Assembly: GCA_038254115.1 (NCBI GenBank) | Contig: JBBSGK010000002.1 | Location: 5,589-69,588, forward strand | Direction of reading: 5' to 3' | Source: Candidatus Levyibacteriota bacterium | GTDB lineage: Bacteria > Patescibacteriota > Microgenomatia > Levybacterales > UBA12049 | DNA: 64,000 nucleotides | Shown: in pieces, positions 4,842 through 62,316 of the stretch | Numbering within the stretch: position 1 is the stretch's first letter | Layout: each line of letters starts with the position of its first letter | Position numbers and translations under genes: made by a program | The notes under the pieces: model-generated | Databases searched by the model: none | Told to the model about the DNA's origin: nothing | Seen by the model: only the letters and a program-made list of their open reading frames with translations

Positions 4842-4896
4842 ATATTTTATTATAAGTTATATTACTTCTTGACAAATAAAATTTTAGTGATATACT

Positions 4897-42497: not shown

Positions 42498-43984
42498 ATT
42501 ATTTTATTCAGAGCGTCCAGATATGCTTTAACTGATGCGACGATGACATCCGTATCCGCGCCAAAACCATAATACATTATTTTTTTATACTCAACTTGGA
42601 CATGCACCTTGCCCAGATCATCACTTCCTCCGGTTACAGCTTGGACAAGATATTCCTCAAGCTTAACCTTTTTCTTTAAAATCTTATCGACTGCCGAAAA
42701 AGCTGCATCCACAGGTCCGTCTCCTGTTGCCTGAGCTTTCATCTCTTGACCATTTATTTTTATAGTAACATTTGCGCTCGGTGTAACTGAGGTTCCGCAG
42801 ACAACTTCCAAAAGATCCAATGTTGCGTTATCTCCATTTACCTGGTCTCCCATAAGAATCCGCAAGTCATCATCATTGATATCTTTTTTCTTATCGGCAA
42901 CTGTCAGGAAATTTTTATAAATCTCATCCAGTTTTTCAGGTGTCACTTTATAATTAAGTCTTTCCAGGTGATATTTAAGCGCAGCTCTGCCCGATCTGGC
43001 TGTCAGAGCTAGGGAGGATTCTTTGATTCCCACATCCTGAGGACTTATGATTTCATAAGTTAAACGGTGTTTGAGAACTCCGTTTTGATGGATTCCTGAA
43101 GAGTGCGCAAAAGCATTGCGCCCGACGATTGCTTTATTTGCCTGAACAGGCATTCGCATAAGGCGCGATACCATGCGCGATGCAGGATAGATTTTTTTGG
43201 TATCAATTTGAGTTATTGCGTTAAGATCTTTTCTGGTTGAGAGGATCATCACTGCTTCTTCAAGGGAAGTATTTCCCGCCCTCTCGCCAACTCCGTTAAT
43301 TGTTACCTCAATTTGCCTCGCGCCGTTTTGGACAGCAGCAATTGAATTGGCAGTCGCCATGCCCAAGTCATTATGACAGTGAACGGCAACGATTACATCT
43401 TCAATCCCATCGACATGATCAAACAAGTATTTTATTTTCTCCCCAAATTCACTAGGAAGACAATAGCCGGTTGTATCGGGAATATTTACAGTTGTAGCAC
43501 CTGCTTTTATAGCTTTCTCTATAAACTCTGCCAGAAATTCATTATCAGTCCGTCCCGCATCCATGGCCGAAAACTCAACGTCCTCGGCAAATTTCTTGGC
43601 GTATTTTACAGCTTCCACGGCTTGTTCTGTTATTTTCTCACGTGTTGAGCGGAACTGATGGATGATGTGAACATCCGAACTGCTGATAAAGGTATGAATG
43701 CGCTTGTGTTTGGCGAACTTCAACGATTCGTTTGCTGCGTCTATGTCTCCTTTTATTGCGCGGGACAAAGCAGTAATGATTGGCTTTTTAACAACTTTGC
43801 TAATTTCCTGGACTGATTTCAGATCCCCGGGGCTTGAAATAGGAAAGCCTGCCTCTATGATATCGACTCCAAGCGACTCAAGCATTTCTGCAACTTCAAT
43901 TTTTTCAACAGTATTTAACTGACAGCCGGGGGATTGCTCACCGTCTCTTAATGTTGTGTCAAAGATAAAAATTTTATTTTTCAT
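42494..43984 (-). CDS. leuA: 2-isopropylmalate synthase
   Basis: [14 protein letters not shown] (DRE-TIM metallolyase N-terminus), [18 protein letters not shown]-terminal LeuA regulatory domain. Confidence 0.9.
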
Positions 43985-44798
43985 ATTTTTTATTTTTTCC
44001 CAGGAATAATAAATAGATAACCCCTATATATCCCGCCATTATAGAAAGTCTGGCCAAACTAAATTCAGAATCTATTCCTGTAAAGCTACGTACTGCGTGA
44101 CCAATCAGGCTACGCTCGTCAGGCATAAATCTCATTTGAAATGAAACAATGTCAGACAAGCGAAAATTAAATTGATGAGCGAGCAGCTCTGTTGTTCCCA
44201 CCTGGACCATTGATGCCCCAAGCAGCATAATCATATATTCCGTAATGCGGAACACTTTCTGTATGGGAAATTTGGTGTATGTAAAAAATGCCGCTATCCC
44301 AACAAGCGATGCTGATCCAAGTCCAATAAAAAGCCCCATCATATTCTGAAAGAAAACAGCAAAGAGCGAAGTGCTCGCTGTGAATAGAGCAATTTCAAAT
44401 CCTTCTCTTATTACTAATAATATAATAGTTGCAAACAATGTAAAATCAAAAGCTCTGTTCTCCAATTTTGTTTTAGCTGTTTTAATTATAGCTTTTTTAT
44501 TCTCACTTATCCGCCTGTGAAGGGAAAAAATAACATAAGCTATGAAGAATCCGGAAAACAGCATAAGATAGTTTCCCAATAATTCTGCCCGCTTTTCAGT
44601 TAGTATAACTCGGGCCGCGTCCCCAAAGGTGTAAGTTGCAGTTGACAAAATAACAGAAATTAAAATTCCCAGTGCTGCAGCAATCCCTATCTCTGTTTCT
44701 TTTTTCAAACGAAGCTTTCGTGATACTCCCAGAAAAACACCTATGATTAGGAATATTTCCAAAAACTCTCTGAATGCAATTATCGCTATACTGAACAT
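43974..44798 (-). CDS. FTR1/EfeU-family putative iron permease, first gene after the leu attenuator
   Basis: Two RExxE motifs in hydrophobic spans ([13 protein letters not shown] and [13 protein letters not shown]). Seven predicted TMS. I prefer the ATG at 44798 (MFSIAII...) over the TTG at 44855, which lies in the terminator U-tract. Confidence 0.5.
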
Positions 44799-44853
44799 AA
44801 TTTTAATTATACACCCGCCGTTGTTTTCTTTTCGTCTAACATCCTGAACCCAC

Positions 44854-44877
44854 AAAAAAAACCCCGCTGAGCGGGGG
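44854..44877 (-). terminator. Intrinsic terminator of the leu attenuator (CCCCGC-UCA-GCGGGG + U8 on minus strand)
   Basis: Plus strand reads aaaaaaaaccccgctgagcggggg. The reverse strand gives a GC hairpin followed by eight U. Confidence 0.75.
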
Positions 44878-44910
44878 TGTATTTGTTACTAACCAAACAA
44901 ATCTCCCCGC

Positions 44911-44955
44911 CTAAACGGTAAGAAGTGTAAGGTTAAGAAGTTGTCTTTTATTCAT
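44911..44955 (-). CDS. leuL: Leu-rich leader peptide MNKRQLLNLTLLTV (leu operon attenuator)
   Basis: 14 codons, 5 Leu. The stop is immediately followed by GCGGGGAG, which can pair with the 5' arm of the terminator (antiterminator). TTGACG-N17-TATTAT promoter at 44965-44993 (minus). Confidence 0.6.
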   Translation of the reverse strand: MNKRQLLNLTLLTV

Positions 44956-45057
44956 GTTGATTTGATAATATCAGAAGAATCACAATCCGTCAATAGTTTT
45001 GTTACGCCTGATCCTGTTTGAGATATTGACTGGAAAGTATAGCGAGGTGGTATACTA

Positions 45058-45435
45058 TTGTTCATGGATAAATCTCAACCCGCAACAAAAGAAGACTTAT
45101 TAGATCTTGAAAAAAGGCAGGATAAGAAGTTTGCTGCAAAAACAGATATAAAAGACCTCAAATTAGAAACTAAATCTATACGGGGAGAGCTTTTGAGGGT
45201 TGAGGAAAAAGTAGAATATATACAAGATGAAATAAAAGAAATTGGCGCAGATAACAAAAGCATGGATACCAAACTTGATAGACTCCAGAATACGTTGGAC
45301 AGTTTAGTCGGGGGAATTGATGAGTTAAGAGTTGAAAATACAGTTGGAACGCATCAGACCCGAGAGCTTCAGGTCAAAGTTGAAGATCATGAGAAGAGAT
45401 TAAGGCAAGTTGAGTCTTCAAAACAAGCAGCGTAA
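45058..45435 (+). CDS. Hypothetical coiled-coil protein
   Basis: 125 aa, heptad-rich (LKLETKSIRGELLRVEEKVEYIQDEIKEI...LDRLQNTLDSLVGGIDELRVEN). TTGACT-N17-TATACT promoter just upstream. Confidence 0.5.
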   Translation: MFMDKSQPATKEDLLDLEKRQDKKFAAKTDIKDLKLETKSIRGELLRVEEKVEYIQDEIKEIGADNKSMDTKLDRLQNTLDSLVGGIDELRVENTVGTHQTRELQVKVEDHEKRLRQVESSKQAA

Positions 45436-45511
45436 ATTAAATTTATCCCATAAAAAATTTAAGTGCGAAAAAGCTTGCATTCTCAGGCTTTTATGATAAA
45501 ATATCGATATT

Positions 45512-46018
45512 ATGACAGAAGCCAGAGATAATAGAGGCGCAGGAGAAGGAGCAGCTGCTGTAGATTCTCCTAGTAAACAACTGACAGTTCTTTGGGATGA
45601 AATGCGAGGAATTCAAAATGGATGGGGACATGGACTTGGTAGTGGTGGAGAAAAAGTTGGTTTTGGGTTTACTACAAGAACTGAGCCATCTGGAGATGGT
45701 GGTATACATGCGTCATTAGGCAAAGAAGCTGACGGATCTTTTAGAATAAGATTTTCATCTGTAAAGCGTGTGAGTTTAAAAACGTGGAGATGGGGAGAGG
45801 AGTACGAGATCACAGGGGATGTAATTGCAGACAGAAAAGTTCACGAAGACTTTAGGCTTGACGGTGTTGATATGAATGACAGAAATCCAAACCCACATAG
45901 TATGGGAATTGATGGATCTACTCCTGCTGGCCCAATAGGTTTCCTGAGAACATTATGGCAAGAGAGAAGAGATGAATTTAATGCTTCCAATCGGAGCGTT
46001 GGTCTCCCTAATGTTTAA
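45512..46018 (+). CDS. Hypothetical protein, no recognisable domain (GC-richer)
   Basis: 168-aa ORF, Gly-rich N-terminal half (WGHGLGSGGEKVGFGFTT). No known family. Confidence 0.4.
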   Translation: MTEARDNRGAGEGAAAVDSPSKQLTVLWDEMRGIQNGWGHGLGSGGEKVGFGFTTRTEPSGDGGIHASLGKEADGSFRIRFSSVKRVSLKTWRWGEEYEITGDVIADRKVHEDFRLDGVDMNDRNPNPHSMGIDGSTPAGPIGFLRTLWQERRDEFNASNRSVGLPNV

Positions 46019-52349: not shown

Positions 52350-52372
52350 AAAAAAACCGCCTATTTGGCGGG
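52350..52372 (-). terminator. Intrinsic terminator of the ilvB attenuator (CCCGCC-AAAUA-GGCGG + U7 on minus strand)
   Basis: Plus strand reads aaaaaaaccgcctatttggcggg. On the reverse strand the hairpin is followed by seven U, 12 nt before the ilvB ATG. Confidence 0.75.
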
Positions 52373-52401
52373 ATTTTTATTACTTCGTTCTCCTCCCGCC
52401 A

Positions 52402-52446
52402 TTAGTGGGCCACGAGAAGGACGACTGTAATTAATATTTTTTTCAT
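52402..52446 (-). CDS. ilvL: Ile/Leu/Val-rich leader peptide MKKILITVVLLVAH (ilvBNC attenuator)
   Basis: 14 codons, 8 branched-chain residues. The stop is followed at once by GGCGGGA, complementary to UCCCGCC of the terminator 5' arm. TTGACT-N17-TACAAT promoter at 52459-52487 (minus). Confidence 0.65.
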   Translation of the reverse strand: MKKILITVVLLVAH

Positions 52447-52523
52447 ATACCAAAAGTGATTGTATCAGATGAAATTTATAGAGTCAAGAAGTACGGCAGT
52501 TGCAAAAAGATTTAGGAATTTAG

Positions 52524-54154: not shown

Positions 54155-54363
54155 GATTTGGCATTTGTCCTCTTGGTAATCTTATCAATTAGTAAAAGCA
54201 ATTTCTGCTAGAGTAGTTGGGGTTAATGTCGTACAAAACTTATTAGCACTTTGTCCTAATGGTTACAAAATGTTAGAATTTGTAGCGATGATAATCCTTA
54301 CTTATAAAAAGATTTAAATTTATGGACAAATAGCTAATTATATTGATTTAACAACCTAATTAG

Positions 54364-54446
54364 TGCGGACGAGAGGAGTTGAACCTCCACACCCTTTCGG
54401 GCACTACCACCTCAAGGTAGCGTGTATACCATTTCACCACGTCCGC
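54364..54446 (-). tRNA. tRNA-Leu (anticodon GAG), long variable arm
   Basis: Reverse complement GCGGACGTGGTGAAATGGTATACACGCTACCTTGAGGTGGTAGTGCCCGAAAGGGTGTGGAGGTTCAACTCCTCTCGTCCGCA. Anticodon loop TTGAGGT. Confidence 0.8.
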
Positions 54447-54751: not shown

Positions 54752-54769
54752 AGTCCTATTGTTTACTTG

Positions 54770-54852
54770 TGCCCAGGAGAGGAGTTGAACCTCCACGCCC
54801 TTGCGAGCACTGGCACCTGAAGCCAGCGTGTATACCATTTCACCACCTGGGC
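54770..54852 (-). tRNA. tRNA-Leu (anticodon CAG), long variable arm
   Basis: Reverse complement GCCCAGGTGGTGAAATGGTATACACGCTGGCTTCAGGTGCCAGTGCTCGCAAGGGCGTGGAGGTTCAACTCCTCTCCTGGGCA. Confidence 0.8.
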
Positions 54853-55711: not shown

Positions 55712-55794
55712 GCGGATGTGGTGAAATGGCAGACACGCAAGGTTTAGGACCTTGTGCCCGCAAGGGTGTGGAGGTTCGACTCCTCTCATCCGCA
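55712..55794 (+). tRNA. tRNA-Leu (anticodon TAG), long variable arm
   Basis: GCGGATGTGGTGAAATGGCAGACACGCAAGGTTTAGGACCTTGTGCCCGCAAGGGTGTGGAGGTTCGACTCCTCTCATCCGCA. Confidence 0.8.
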
Positions 55795-55810
55795 CTTAAA
55801 TAATTAAACT

Positions 55811-57330: not shown

Positions 57331-57457
57331 TTGACATACCTTAAGTGCATTGATATGATCTATTTAATGACTATAAAAAATATCAGTATTAAAATTATAA
57401 CTTCATAACGGAGAGGTCATTGCATAGCCTTTGAACCTCCCGGACGGGAGTTTTTTT
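57331..57457 (+). promoter_or_regulatory. ilvA control region: TTGACA-N17-TGATATGAT promoter, leaderless Ile-rich leader peptide MTIKNISIKIITS (57367-57408), CUCCC-GGAC-GGGAG hairpin + U7 whose 3' arm is the ilvA Shine-Dalgarno sequence
   Basis: Read directly. Leader has 5 Ile in 13 codons. The hairpin at 57437-57450 is followed by ttttttt and the ATG at 57458. Confidence 0.55.
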
Positions 57458-58705
57458 ATGGATAAAATCACAGTAAACACAATAGAGGAAGCTGCAAAAA
57501 CGCTTGACGGTGTTGTCAGCAATACGCCTCTGCAGTACAATCCTAGACTTTCAGCGGAGTTTAATTGCGATTTATACATCAAACGCGAAGATCTTCAAGA
57601 CGTACGGTCCTTTAAAATAAGAGGCGCATACAACAAGATTAATTCCCTAAAACAAACGGAGCGGAAACGGGGAATCGTAGCGGCCAGTACAGGCAATCAT
57701 GCGCAAGGCGTTGCTTACAGCTGCTTTCTTCTCAAAATAAAGGGAGTAATCTTCATGCCAACGGTAATATCCAATCAAAAAATTGATAAAGTAAAGCACT
57801 TCGGAGGTAAATATGTTGAGATCAAATTAATTGGCAAAACATTTGATGAGGCAGTGGACGCAGCGCGCAAATATTGTAAGGCTCACAATGCTGTTTTTAT
57901 TCACCCTTTTGATGATCCTTTGACAATATCCGGTCAAGGAACAGTGGGAAAAGAGATTTACGATAATTTGAAAGGTAAAGTTGATGTAGTAATCTCCCCG
58001 ATTGGCGGAGGAGGCCTTATCTCAGGTGTTGCCACTTATGTCAAAGGCAAGAAAAAAGAAGTAAAAGTTTTTGGAGTCGAGGCAAAGGGCGCTGCGAGCA
58101 TGGCAGAATCTTTAAAGCAGGACAAAATTGTTTCACTTGGAACATTTGATACTTTTGTCGATGGCGCTGCTGTCAATAAGGTGGGTCATTTGCCTTATCA
58201 AATTTGCTCTGAATTGGTGGAAAATGTACATATTGCCGAGGTTGGAAAAGTCTGCACTACAATGATTGACTTGTATCAAAATGAAGGGATAATCACGGAG
58301 CCGGCAGGCGCTTTGTCTCTGTCTGTTCTTGACGAACTAAGAGCCGAAATCAAAGGTAAAACGGTAGTATGCATACTTAGTGGCGGGAATAATGATATCT
58401 TGCGGTATCCTGAAATAATGGAAAAAAGTTTGGTGTACAAAGGGTTAAAGCACTATTTTCTGGTAGAATTCGCGCAGAAACCGGGACAATTGAAGCAATT
58501 TCTTAATAATGCGCTTGGGCCTCGGGATGACATCGTGCTTTTTGAATACATAAAAAGAAATTCACGGGAAAAAGGCCCCGCTCTAATTGGAGTAGAGCTA
58601 AGTAAAAAAGAAGATCTTGCCACACTTCTTGACAATATGGATAAATTGCAGATATTATATACAAAGATTACGAGCGATGACCCGCTATATGGTTTTATAT
58701 TATGA
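57458..58705 (+). CDS. ilvA: Threonine ammonia-lyase (biosynthetic threonine dehydratase) with C-terminal regulatory domain
   Basis: PLP-lysine motif SFKIRGAYNKI, GGGGLISG glycine loop, C-terminal ACT-like domain. Followed by ridA. Confidence 0.85.
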   Translation: MDKITVNTIEEAAKTLDGVVSNTPLQYNPRLSAEFNCDLYIKREDLQDVRSFKIRGAYNKINSLKQTERKRGIVAASTGNHAQGVAYSCFLLKIKGVIFMPTVISNQKIDKVKHFGGKYVEIKLIGKTFDEAVDAARKYCKAHNAVFIHPFDDPLTISGQGTVGKEIYDNLKGKVDVVISPIGGGGLISGVATYVKGKKKEVKVFGVEAKGAASMAESLKQDKIVSLGTFDTFVDGAAVNKVGHLPYQICSELVENVHIAEVGKVCTTMIDLYQNEGIITEPAGALSLSVLDELRAEIKGKTVVCILSGGNNDILRYPEIMEKSLVYKGLKHYFLVEFAQKPGQLKQFLNNALGPRDDIVLFEYIKRNSREKGPALIGVELSKKEDLATLLDNMDKLQILYTKITSDDPLYGFIL

Positions 58706-60582: not shown

Positions 60583-62316
60583 ATGGATAAACAAAATTTG
60601 GAACATCTCAGACATTCTACAGCTCATCTTTTGGCCGCAGCGGTGCTGGGCCTTTATCCTGAAACGAAGCGGGCAATTGGTCCGGCAATTGAATCCGGAT
60701 TTTACTATGATTTTGACTTCAAAGAACCACTAAGCGAAGAAGATTTACCAAAGATAGAAAAGAAAATGGAAGAGATTCTTAAGAGTTGGAATAGTTTTGA
60801 AAAAAAAGAAATAAGCGTTGAGGAAGCAAATAAGGAGTTTAAAAACGAACCATATAAATTGGAACTTATAGAAGAATTTTCAAAAGAAGGAAAGCTTTTA
60901 ACAATTTATAAAAGCGGCGATTATGATGATCTATGCAAAGGGGGACACTCTAAAAATCCGCAAAAGGAAATAGGCGCTTTTAAGTTATTGTCAATTGCGG
61001 GCGCATATTGGAAAGGTTCTGAAAAAAACAAAATGCTCACAAGAATTTATGGAACAGCATTCGCGACAAAAAAAGAGCTGGATGAATATCTTGCGATGCT
61101 TGAGGAGGCTAAAAAGCGGGACCATAGAAAAATTGGAAGAGAGCTGGATCTTTTCGTGATATCTAATTTAGTAGGTGCAGGATTGCCTCTTTTTACACCC
61201 AAGGGGACACTACTTCGTGACTTATTAGCTGAGTTTTCTGAATCGCTTCAAAAAAAGTATGGATATCAAAAAGTTTGGATTCCCCATATTGCCAAAACAG
61301 ATCTCTACAAAAAATCAGGCCACTGGGATAAATTTGGTGATGAATTATTCCTTGTTAAAAGCCAGGAAACAGATGATCAATTTGTTATGAAGCCTATGAA
61401 CTGCCCTCATCATATTCAGATTTATGAATCCCGCCCTCGAAGCTATCGTGAGCTACCTATTCGATATATGGAAACAACTACAGTTTACCGTGACGAAAAA
61501 GCAGGAGAATTATCTGGAATCTCACGCGTGCGCTCCCTTACGCAAGACGACGCACATGCTTTCTGCAAGATGGATCAAATTGAGCAAGAATTTGAAAATA
61601 TAATGACCATGATTAAAACACTGTACGGATCGCTTAACATGAAGTTTAAAGCTCGTTTATCGTTTAGGGATGATTCAGACAAATATCTCGGAGATAAAAA
61701 AAATTGGGATGTTTCGGAAAAAATTATTGAAGACGTTGCAAAAAAACTAGACATAAACTATGTAGCAGTAAAAGGTGAAGCTGCATTTTATGGACCAAAG
61801 ATTGATATCATGGTAGTTGATGCGTTGGGACGCGAATGGCAATGTGCAACTGAACAGCTCGATTTTGTACAGCCAGAGCGGTTTGGAATAAAATATATTG
61901 ATGCAGACGGACAGGAAAAAAATCCGGTTATGATTCACAAAGCCTTGCTCGGATCCATCGAAAGATTTCTGTCTGTTTATATTGAGCATACGAGCGGATC
62001 ATTTCCTACTTGGCTTTCACCTGTGCAAGTTTCAATTCTTGCAATTGCTGACAGACACAATGAATATGCCCAAAAGGTTAATCAACAGTTAAAGGACGCT
62101 GGAATCCGTTCAGAAGTTGATACGAGGTCTGAACGGCTCCAGGCCAAGATAAGAGATGCTGCTTTACAAAAAGTACCATTTATGGGTATAATAGGGGATA
62201 AAGAAACAGACACCAAAGAGGTATCTGTCAGAATTCGTGGCGGAGAAGACTTGGGATCGCTCACTGTTGACTCCTTAATTAATAAGTTACAAGAAAAAAT
62301 TGATAAGAAAATATAA
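60583..62316 (+). CDS. thrS: Threonyl-tRNA synthetase, form lacking the N-terminal TGS domain
   Basis: Starts at the HxxxH editing-domain motif (HSTAHLLAAAV). Class II motifs 2 and 3 (...YRDE..GELSGISRVRSLTQDDAH..., ...GPKIDIMV...). C-terminal anticodon-binding domain. A TATAAT lies 7 nt before the ATG (leaderless). Confidence 0.85.
   Translation: MDKQNLEHLRHSTAHLLAAAVLGLYPETKRAIGPAIESGFYYDFDFKEPLSEEDLPKIEKKMEEILKSWNSFEKKEISVEEANKEFKNEPYKLELIEEFSKEGKLLTIYKSGDYDDLCKGGHSKNPQKEIGAFKLLSIAGAYWKGSEKNKMLTRIYGTAFATKKELDEYLAMLEEAKKRDHRKIGRELDLFVISNLVGAGLPLFTPKGTLLRDLLAEFSESLQKKYGYQKVWIPHIAKTDLYKKSGHWDKFGDELFLVKSQETDDQFVMKPMNCPHHIQIYESRPRSYRELPIRYMETTTVYRDEKAGELSGISRVRSLTQDDAHAFCKMDQIEQEFENIMTMIKTLYGSLNMKFKARLSFRDDSDKYLGDKKNWDVSEKIIEDVAKKLDINYVAVKGEAAFYGPKIDIMVVDALGREWQCATEQLDFVQPERFGIKYIDADGQEKNPVMIHKALLGSIERFLSVYIEHTSGSFPTWLSPVQVSILAIADRHNEYAQKVNQQLKDAGIRSEVDTRSERLQAKIRDAALQKVPFMGIIGDKETDTKEVSVRIRGGEDLGSLTVDSLINKLQEKIDKKI

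Follow-up and report, generated by a model that had tools for sequence, protein, structure and literature searches.

The leu operon and its leader region

In the window, by which we mean the whole stretch of 64,000 nucleotides of contig JBBSGK010000002.1 analysed here, the genes leuA, leuC, leuD, and leuB are organised on the minus strand behind a gene encoding an FTR1-family permease. The region upstream of this gene harbours a short leader with a promoter, a leucine-rich mini-open reading frame (mini-ORF), and an intrinsic terminator (coordinates in Table 1). Judged from its sequence, this leu leader is very probably a leucine-sensing, ribosome-mediated leader-peptide transcription attenuator for FTR1-leuA-leuC-leuD-leuB. 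An attenuation design of this kind had been proposed in a preliminary description of the stretch, and it is borne out by the conservation of the leader, by the coupled changes of its pairing arms, by its geometry relative to a translating ribosome, and by sister leaders with matching peptides.

The promoter, previously read as TTGACG-N17-TATTAT, is present and of the sigma-70 type. The consensus scan gave 10/12 matches, and a TG ahead of the -10 box makes it an extended -10 promoter. Downstream of it we found the 14-codon ORF already described, with five Leu codons, every one of them CUU, at codons 6, 7, 9, 11, and 12 (44940-44920). Its ATG sits 9 nt past the -10 hexamer and no Shine-Dalgarno sequence is present. 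This spacing implies a 5′ untranslated region of about 0-3 nt, and the mini-ORF of the window is probably leaderless. The segment abutting the stop codon, GCGGGG, was said to pair with CCCCGC and forms 6/6 antiterminator pairs with it in our model. The perfect CCCCGC-UCA-GCGGGG hairpin was also found by the terminator scan, with 6/6 G-C pairs and a U8 tract. As described, the terminator precedes the FTR1-like gene leading to leuA-leuC-leuD-leuB (ORF map, Pfam), the ATG of which (44798) lies 55 nt past U8. The FTR1-family gene comes first past the terminator and shares 11 nt with leuA, in agreement with its earlier assignment to the regulated unit.

The layout of the leader is not a chance pattern. 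At the genome Leu frequency of 8.9%, at least five Leu in 13 codons have a binomial P of 0.004, and five Leu are reached by 2.8% of the 10-20-codon ATG mini-ORFs of the window. The leader of 111 nt folds at -33.1 kcal/mol (z = -3.5), a stability equalled by 0/200 dinucleotide shuffles. The complementarity of the post-stop segment to the terminator arm was equalled by 22/1000 spacer shuffles. To the elements of the preliminary description we add the start coordinate of the ORF (44955), the leaderless spacing, a 1:2 protector hairpin, two sister attenuators, and the host, a bacterium of the candidate phyla radiation (CPR).

Conservation in related genomes

Relatives were gathered without presupposing the leader, by comparing the FTR1 protein with one genome per GTDB species and LeuA with metagenomes. 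Further loci were added by exact-protein look-ups. The search of relatives for a conserved Leu-rich mini-ORF, proposed earlier as a check, revealed it in 12 relatives, which together with the window gave the 13 leaders compared here. The leu operons of these 12 relatives, with or without FTR1, possess the promoter, the Leu-rich mini-ORF, the complementary post-stop segment, and the terminator ahead of the first gene. Where an FTR1-leuA locus had intact upstream sequence, the leader was present (6/6 relatives), and in six CPR leu operons lacking FTR1 it lies directly ahead of leuA. The leader was missing only from L088 and L090, in which leuA sits within a longer operon, and from L082, with its contig cut off. 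The combination of mini-ORF and terminator was never found at the roughly 70 FTR1 loci that lack leu genes nearby, L164 and L165 included. The leader thus tracks the leu operon and not the permease, as it is present in leu operons without FTR1 and missing at FTR1 loci without leu genes.

Two loci, L010 and L071, in which FTR1 is preceded by a conserved terminator and leuC lies some 3.5 kb further downstream, were considered as candidates and dropped, since a minus-strand ORF intervenes, so that the two genes do not form one operon, and no Leu ORF is present. About 60-170 nt upstream of FTR1 these loci carry TTGACA-N17-TATAGT, a leader of about 130 nt, and CGACCA-UAGUACA-UGGUCG-U7, with MKRFFI as the only ORF. 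This leader may be a different cis-regulator of the permease.

All 13 leaders share the same build. TTGAC is invariant and followed, after N17, by a TAnnnT -10 box. From the -10 hexamer to the ATG there are 7-13 nt, with no Shine-Dalgarno sequence, and the ATG opens an ORF of 14-18 codons with 4-7 Leu. The segment complementary to the terminator arm begins -1 to +6 nt from the stop codon, the spacer from the stop to the terminator 5′ arm measures 34-39 nt, and the G-C-rich stem of 5-7 bp is followed by 6-8 U. Among the nine closest leaders, ORF lengths differ by 3 or 6 nt, and codons change between GUU, GUC, and GUG, between CUU and CUC, and between UAG and UAA. Such insertions and deletions in multiples of 3 nt, together with synonymous changes, are as expected of a translated frame. 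The C-terminal motif LLNL(A/T/S)LLTV is kept in 9 leaders. In the divergent leaders (L034, L085-L087) the non-Leu residues of the peptide are not kept, and Leu richness and antiterminator geometry are.

These comparisons bear on another reading, which we consider very unlikely, namely that the unit is an independent small gene for a small RNA (sRNA) of about 100 nt or for a hydrophobic 14-aa micropeptide (…LLNLxLLTV), and that the leu operon is expressed separately, by constitutive read-through or from a promoter such as the TATAAT at 44811-44806. A strong promoter and a strong terminator do bound a discrete unit of about 100 nt, the C-terminal motif is kept, and attenuator-derived RNAs or peptides can act in trans in other bacteria (PMC6614838, PMC7298713). 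The TATAAT, on the minus strand downstream of the terminator, is a perfect -10-like hexamer 7 nt ahead of the FTR1 ATG. As a weak internal promoter it could yield basal, leaderless FTR1-leu transcripts that bypass the attenuator, a point against attenuation. Nevertheless, its -35 has only 2/6 matches and is not usable, the promoter scan gave no call there, and the hexamer is not kept in L163, the closest relative. The unit is always found right ahead of the gene that opens the leu operon, and in several relatives (L034, L083, and L162) the ATG of this gene follows the U-tract immediately, leaving no room for another promoter. The variable non-Leu residues of L034 and L085-L087, next to persistent Leu richness and antiterminator geometry, are also at odds with a conserved micropeptide, as are the sister units of the window, which turn Ile-rich or Ile/Leu/Val-rich in step with their operons. 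A role in trans may exist on top of cis attenuation.

Co-variation, folding energies, and ribosome position

Among the leaders, changes in the post-stop segment are matched in both arms of the terminator, 5′ and 3′, giving three arm types: GCGGGG/CCCCGC/GCGGGG, (C)GGCGG/CCGCC(G)/GGCGG, and GGUUUGGGAGA/UCUCCCAAAC/GGGAGA. Pairs were counted in an alignment of the 13 leaders anchored on the terminator loop, with the post-stop block shifted rigidly. The terminator core was 100% paired, with double changes in 4/5 columns. The antiterminator was 76% paired, against 36-47% with the partner slid, and showed double changes in 7/8 columns, figures that lean towards structure because its register was chosen per sequence by best pairing. 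With the ORF and the terminator kept, the post-stop complementarity was reached by 0-36/1000 dinucleotide-preserving spacer shuffles in each of the 13 leaders, which are related, so that the per-leader tests are not independent. In the nine closest leaders, aligned with MAFFT, 89.6% of the cells of the 1:2 hairpin were paired, against 35-52% when slid, and two columns showed compensatory C-G to U-A changes. The inner antiterminator hairpin was 77.8% paired in the same alignment.

The comparison of folding energies, also proposed in the preliminary description, gave -11.3 kcal/mol for the terminator of the window leader and -17.1 kcal/mol for its antiterminator. The inner hairpin shifts the 2:3 antiterminator structure from -10.6 to the latter value. 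In the minimum free energy (MFE) fold of the untranslated full-length leader, region 1 is paired with region 2 (44936-44915 with 44910-44889) and the terminator is formed, which is the classical 1:2 plus 3:4 off state.

The position of the ribosome was modelled codon by codon, with -12 to +15 around the P site blocked. For A-site positions from codon 5 to codon 11, Leu codons 6, 7, 9, and 11 among them, the window leader formed 6/6 antiterminator pairs and no terminator. With the A-site on codon 13 to the stop or on codons 2-4, or with no ribosome, the terminator formed. A co-transcriptional model, in which the terminator 3′ arm is left out as still unmade, was used instead of the equilibrium version to compare 11 leaders. 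When the ribosome stalled on a Leu codon, the terminator 5′ arm was 80-90% paired to the post-stop segment in 11/11 leaders (-12.5 to -21.9 kcal/mol), and with the ribosome at the stop codon it was 0-30% paired (11/11).

Together with the chosen register and the relatedness of the leaders, several results weigh against attenuation. The full-length equilibrium model switches in 7/11 leaders; L002, L034, L085, and L087 keep the terminator throughout, and their switching appears only in the kinetic truncated-transcript model. Leu codon 12 of the window leader is a borderline case, since the footprint of a ribosome there just touches GCGGGG. The co-variation of the 1:2 hairpin is modest, and its score is attained by 10/500 shuffles. 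Aligned with MAFFT, the nine closest leaders gave 55.9% pairing for the outer antiterminator helix, no better than shuffles, and RNAalifold gave no consensus structure for the MAFFT alignment of the stop-to-terminator segments. We attribute these last two results to MAFFT, which mis-registers the arms across the three types. The RNAalifold result in particular reflects a failure of alignment and does not speak against pairing, but both results limit the formal case for co-variation.

Sister leaders, leucine codons, and tRNA genes

A search for the spacing of promoter and ATG revealed two further mini-ORFs of the same build in the window, one ahead of ilvB and one ahead of ilvA (Table 1). Both sister leaders have the ATG within 7-13 nt of the -10 box and no Shine-Dalgarno sequence, and both switch in the ribosome-position model. 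Ile-rich ilvA leaders were also found in L167 and L168. Among the loci of relatives compared, no ilvA leader was found where ilvA is internal to an operon. The composition of the peptides tracks the product of the operon (Leu for leu, Ile/Leu/Val for ilvB, and Ile for ilvA), which is hard to explain except by codon-specific stalling of the ribosome.

In the leu leaders, 59/68 Leu codons (87%) are CUU or CUC, compared with 42% in genes. The window encodes a tRNA-Leu(GAG), which reads these two codons. The region between the ilv and the ilvA attenuators contains three tRNA-Leu genes that serve CUN codons.

Full-length genes (at least 137 aa) on the plus strand of the window at 4869, 7284, and 17073 also show TTGACA-N16-18-TAnnnT with the ATG 6-10 nt past the -10 box. 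About three such matches are expected by chance from an estimate based on base composition, so that a wider use of leaderless mRNA in the genome of the window is only hinted at.

The sister leaders also bear on the possibility of a ribosome-independent switch (T-box-like tRNA sensor, metabolite riboswitch, or protein-binding attenuator, for example) that would work through the same terminator and antiterminator and for which the mini-ORF would be incidental. We consider this improbable, slightly more so than the small gene. Alternative terminators and antiterminators are common to all such mechanisms, translation of the ORF is here a prediction, and the ilv-leu operon of Bacillus subtilis is under a tRNA-Leu T-box (PMC5794164). 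Nonetheless, a permissive Rfam scan of 44000-46000 (E <= 10) gave no match to Leu_leader (RF00512), leu/phe-leader, T-box (RF00230), or any riboswitch, and at the gathering threshold Rfam detected tRNAs only, with no T-box, riboswitch, or leader family, in the window and 16 related loci. The leader is only about 100 nt long and shows no conserved core resembling a ligand pocket. A non-coding sensor would need neither the conserved frame of 14-18 codons, nor the position of the stop, nor the 3-nt insertions and deletions, nor the enrichment in Leu codons, and it would not lead to an amino acid composition that follows operon function in three separate leaders. The permissive scan yielded sub-threshold noise throughout, with Arrc14, an Actinobacillus sRNA, as the best match, at 44848-44976 on the minus strand; it scored 26 bits against a gathering score of 99 (E = 0.31), mainly from the terminator.

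Table 1. Features of the leu leader, its sister leaders, and surrounding genes in the window, followed by loci and leader peptides of relatives
Feature	Coordinates	Strand	Remarks
Sigma-70-type promoter, leu leader	44965-44993	-	-35 TTGACG 44993-44988; 17-nt spacer; TG 44973-44972; -10 TATTAT 44970-44965
Leader ORF, leu	44955-44911	-	MNKRQLLNLTLLTV; 14 codons; ATG 44955-44953; stop UAG 44913-44911
Region 1, 5′ strand of 1:2 protector hairpin	44915-44936	-	overlaps Leu codons 7-12; MFE fold
Region 2, 3′ strand of protector hairpin	44889-44910	-	MFE fold
Post-stop GCGGGG	44910-44905	-	abuts stop; first 6 nt of region 2; antiterminator 5′ strand
Inner antiterminator hairpin	44881-44902	-	AUUUGUU-8 nt-AACAAAU; in relatives too, sequence altered
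Intrinsic terminator	44862-44876	-	CCCCGC-UCA-GCGGGG; terminator scan
Terminator 5′ arm, region 3	44876-44871	-	CCCCGC; common to terminator and antiterminator
Terminator loop	44870-44868	-	UCA
Terminator 3′ arm, region 4	44867-44862	-	GCGGGG
U8 tract of terminator	44854-44861	-	sequence, terminator scan
FTR1-family permease gene	43974-44798	-	Pfam PF03239, E = 4e-17; first gene past attenuator
leuA	43984-42494	-	Pfam, ORF map
leuC	42497-41088	-	Pfam, ORF map
leuD	41091-40477	-	Pfam, ORF map
leuB	40475-39420	-	Pfam, ORF map
SBF-family transporter	39423-38503	-	after leuB
ilvB leader	52350-52487	-	TTGACT-N17-TACAAT, 12 nt, then mini-ORF; 3′ part UAA-U-GGCGGGAGG, then CCGCC-AAAUA-GGCGG-U7
ilvB leader peptide	52446-52402	-	MKKILITVVLLVAH; Ile/Leu/Val-rich
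ilvB	52337-50649	-	12 nt past terminator; then ilvN, ilvC, glyoxalase-family gene, ilvD, ilvE
ilvA leader	57331-57457	+	TTGACA-N17-TATGAT, 7 nt, then mini-ORF; 3′ part UAA-CGGAGAGG, then CUCCC-GGAC-GGGAG-U7
ilvA leader peptide	57367-57408	+	MTIKNISIKIITS; 5 Ile
ilvA	57461-58705	+	ATG 3 nt past terminator; then ridA, M20 peptidase
tRNA-Leu(GAG)	54363-54446	-	reads CUU/CUC
tRNA-Leu(CAG)	54769-54852	-	
tRNA-Leu(UAG)	55712-55795	+	
leu leader peptide, L002			MNKYFALLNLALLTV; before FTR1-leuA
leu leader peptide, L013			MNSQNILLNLALLTV; before FTR1-leuA
leu leader peptide, L034			MSKFCVTSPNLLLLNF; before FTR1-leuA
leu leader peptide, L083			MKMTFIKILNLTLLTV; before FTR1-leuA
leu leader peptide, L162			MKITFVKILNLALLTV; before FTR1-leuA
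leu leader peptide, L163			MNKRNLLNLSLLTV; before FTR1-leuA
leu leader peptide, L084			MKNNNLNLLTLALLTV; before leuA
leu leader peptide, L092			MKIHSLNLLNLALLTV; before leuA
leu leader peptide, L089			MKINFTNLLNLALLTV; before leuA
leu leader peptide, L086			MITKNLLLLDLLLA; before leuA
leu leader peptide, L085 (=L091)			MQRTDLLLTTNLLIQKV; before leuA
leu leader peptide, L087			MTKRSLLLLTADLLILEA; before leuA
ilvA leader peptide, L167			MKRQGSIISIIINS
ilvA leader peptide, L168			MKSLRQNSIKIIINR
FTR1 linked to branched-chain amino acid genes, loci besides window			L002, L013, L034, L057, L064, L067, L078, L079, L083, L162, L163
Leaders of next-closest LeuA lineage			L096, L103, L107, L113, L120, L128, L134, L142, L147, L159; ~40-200 nt upstream of leuA

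Proposed mechanism

In the mechanism proposed for the window, read-through into FTR1-leuACDB would be set by the supply of charged tRNA-Leu. We infer the start of transcription, the translation of the mini-ORF, and the response to leucine from the elements, their conservation, their coupled changes, and the computed switching described above. Transcription would start at or a few nt before the AUG, as the promoter spacing suggests, and a ribosome would load on the emerging 5′ end and trail the polymerase. When leucyl-tRNA is plentiful, the ribosome would reach the UAG and its footprint would mask the post-stop GCGGGG. With this segment masked, CCCCGC would pair with the downstream GCGGGG, and the hairpin with U8 would terminate transcription, leaving the operon off. 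When leucyl-tRNA is scarce, a stall on the CUU codons (6, 7, 9, 11) would cover region 1 and leave GCGGGG free. The free segment would then pair with CCCCGC, aided by the inner AUUUGUU/AACAAAU hairpin, before the 3′ arm is made, and read-through would follow. Without translation, the Leu-codon segment and region 2 would form the 1:2 protector and the terminator would form, so that the default state would be off.

A leucine-sensing mini-ORF with a mainly translational or Rho-dependent output, for example through a hairpin that sequesters the ribosome-binding region of the first gene, is just as improbable as the ribosome-independent switch: it would suit several relatives, and the window ilvA, in which the ATG of the first gene comes right after the U-tract and the 3′ arm is Shine-Dalgarno-like (AAGGAGG in L034, GGGAG before ilvA), and it would have company in mycobacterial leaderless Cys upstream ORFs (uORFs) and actinobacterial leader peptides, for which a mode of action that dispenses with classical terminators is known or proposed (10.1101/834739; PMC1262725), but in the window leu leader the FTR1 ATG lies too far past U8 (55 nt) for the hairpin to occlude the start, and 13/13 leaders keep the G-C-rich 5-7-bp stem with 6-8 U that is the signature of intrinsic termination. 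The regions in question are 2950-3003 in L034, the sequence just upstream of FTR1 in L083 and L162, and 57437-57463 in the window, and the Shine-Dalgarno-like sequences lie in the terminator loop or 3′ arm. In such leaders the hairpin could, from its sequence, also occlude the translation start, giving dual transcriptional and translational control. A dual effect in some relatives is compatible with transcription attenuation as the main explanation.

Beyond the single locus, it is an even question whether these leaders represent an undescribed, clade-wide RNA family of the Microgenomates, in which leaderless mini-ORFs of 13-18 codons decide the attenuation of three separate branched-chain amino acid (BCAA) operons. 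Members of the CPR, or Patescibacteria, are commonly portrayed as symbionts of reduced metabolism, with scant biosynthesis and few known forms of regulation. The window shows the complete ilv-leu gene set of a Microgenomates genome behind three candidate amino-acid-specific attenuators. If the clade-wide family is real, it would give, for the first time, evidence of tight coupling between translation and transcription in these reduced, uncultivated bacteria, and of amino acid synthesis that they tune to tRNA charging. It would further place an FTR1-type permease with both REXXE motifs intact in a leucine regulon, where it might, for instance, provide iron for LeuCD, an Fe-S enzyme. Attenuation works only if ribosomes closely trail RNA polymerase, and these leaders therefore offer a testable handle on coupling and on leaderless initiation in unculturable organisms. 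The 13 leu and three ilvA leaders provide material for covariance models with which to annotate CPR genomes, and the FTR1-family permease is flagged as a candidate for co-regulation by leucine.

The FTR1-family permease, gene neighbourhood, and host

Both REXXE motifs of the FTR1-family permease (REFLE and REGFE) are invariant across 28 FTR1 homologues. Since both are kept, the protein looks like a true iron permease. Among Microgenomates the FTR1 gene recurs in linkage with BCAA genes, either opening the leu operon or lying right after ilvE. This linkage might, speculatively, reflect a need to supply iron to LeuCD and IlvD, both of them Fe-S enzymes.

Two plus-strand ORFs (45058-46018) separate ilvE from the leu leader in the window, one encoding a coiled-coil-like protein of 125 aa and the other a protein of 168 aa without Pfam match. 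In L013, L034, L083, and L162, ilvE adjoins the leader promoter directly. Because ilvE abuts the leader in these relatives, the two ORFs look like an insertion splitting an ilv-leu supercluster.

The named FTR1 homologues (n=645) belong to Roizman-, Curtiss-, Levy-, and Microgenomates/Patescibacteria-group bacteria. Homologues of the housekeeping marker threonyl-tRNA synthetase (ThrRS, 60583-62316) are named Daviesbacteria and Patescibacteria. The genome had been called low in GC, which is true of the window (about 40% GC), and this label missed that the host is a Microgenomates-class CPR bacterium. Many GTDB-representative contigs with the gene content of Microgenomates (L002, L003, L005, L008, and others) are labelled as 'uncultured Gammaproteobacteria bacterium' (TPA assemblies), others as Saccharimonadales, Acidiferrales, or Sulfotelmatobacter, and these labels are unreliable for taxonomy.

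Comparison with known attenuators

Escherichia coli possesses separate leaders for leu, ilvGMEDA, and ilvBN. The separate leu, ilvB, and ilvA leaders of the window parallel this set. Similar to the enterobacterial leu, trp, ilvGMEDA, and ilvBN attenuators, the leu leader of the window comprises the same four segments, namely an ORF with cognate codons, a 1:2 protector, a 2:3 antiterminator, and a 3:4 terminator with a U-tract. The preliminary description had likened it to the enterobacterial leu operon. This likeness holds for the mechanism only; the leader is not a member of the enterobacterial Leu_leader family, to which it shows no homology in sequence or structure, with no match at E <= 10. 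The Leu codons are interspersed CUU/CUC codons (LLNLxLL), whereas the enterobacterial leu leader has a run of four. In addition, the host is a CPR bacterium and the first regulated gene encodes an FTR1-family permease. The ORF of 14 codons is comparable to the E. coli trp leader peptide of 14 residues, but the leu leaders described here lack a Shine-Dalgarno sequence, which E. coli leader peptides generally have (PMC4007540). BCAA-rich leader peptides of E. coli and Salmonella are cited in PMC5794164.

Leu-rich attenuator peptides are already documented outside enterobacteria. BCAA leader peptides are documented or predicted in Staphylococcus aureus, Lactococcus, Corynebacterium, and Streptococcus (PMC5794164), and likewise in Actinobacteria (PMC1262725). 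The ilv-leu operon of S. aureus possesses a Leu/Ile-rich attenuator peptide (PMC5794164). As in S. aureus, the leader of the window would represent BCAA leader-peptide control in a non-proteobacterial, low-GC host, with peptide and terminator conserved in relatives. The S. aureus peptide has 26 aa, a ribosome-binding site 9 nt upstream, a terminator 52 nt past the stop, and an antiterminator that sequesters the poly-U (PMC5794164). In contrast, the peptide described here has 14 aa and no ribosome-binding site, and the antiterminator strand starts right at the stop codon. The actinobacterial cys leader peptides were reported to be 'without obvious terminators' (PMC1262725), whereas the leu leader possesses a canonical terminator/antiterminator pair.

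Leaderless leader peptides are also known. Fourteen leaderless attenuator peptides were predicted in Deinococcus deserti (PMC4007540), and poly-Cys leaderless uORF attenuators are described in mycobacteria (10.1101/834739). The leu leaders resemble these in having a mini-ORF that is rich in the relevant amino acid and is predicted to lie at or near the 5′ end. The phyla differ, and the Deinococcus and mycobacterial starts were mapped experimentally, whereas leaderlessness is suggested here by the spacing from promoter to ATG.

The next-closest LeuA lineage (61-65% identity, many from human-gut metagenomes) possesses its own family of leader-peptide attenuators (Table 1). These have in common with the leu leaders an Ile/Leu mini-ORF, an arm-complementary segment, and a U-tract terminator 30-70 nt before leuA. 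They differ in their peptides of 21-27 aa (e.g. MIQNFTYILLCGIIILLAKFSGSECCA and MKVLNNISSLTLIIGIILLIPKR) with IIILL-type motifs, in another promoter type, and in not being leaderless. Their arms are unrelated (GGAAGUGAG/CUCACUUCC and GAGAAUGG/CCAUUCUC). The TAnnTTTG-type promoters of this lineage suggest Bacteroidota. The L107 and L147 leaders gave no Rfam match.

Within an incomplete coverage of the literature, we found no paper tying attenuation or leader peptides to CPR/Patescibacteria, nor Microgenomates to leucine biosynthesis. The mechanism itself is textbook, and neither Leu attenuators outside proteobacteria nor leaderless leader peptides are without precedent. What the leu leader adds to these known systems is the CPR host and the set of three attenuators, with the probable leaderless start and the FTR1-type permease being of local interest.

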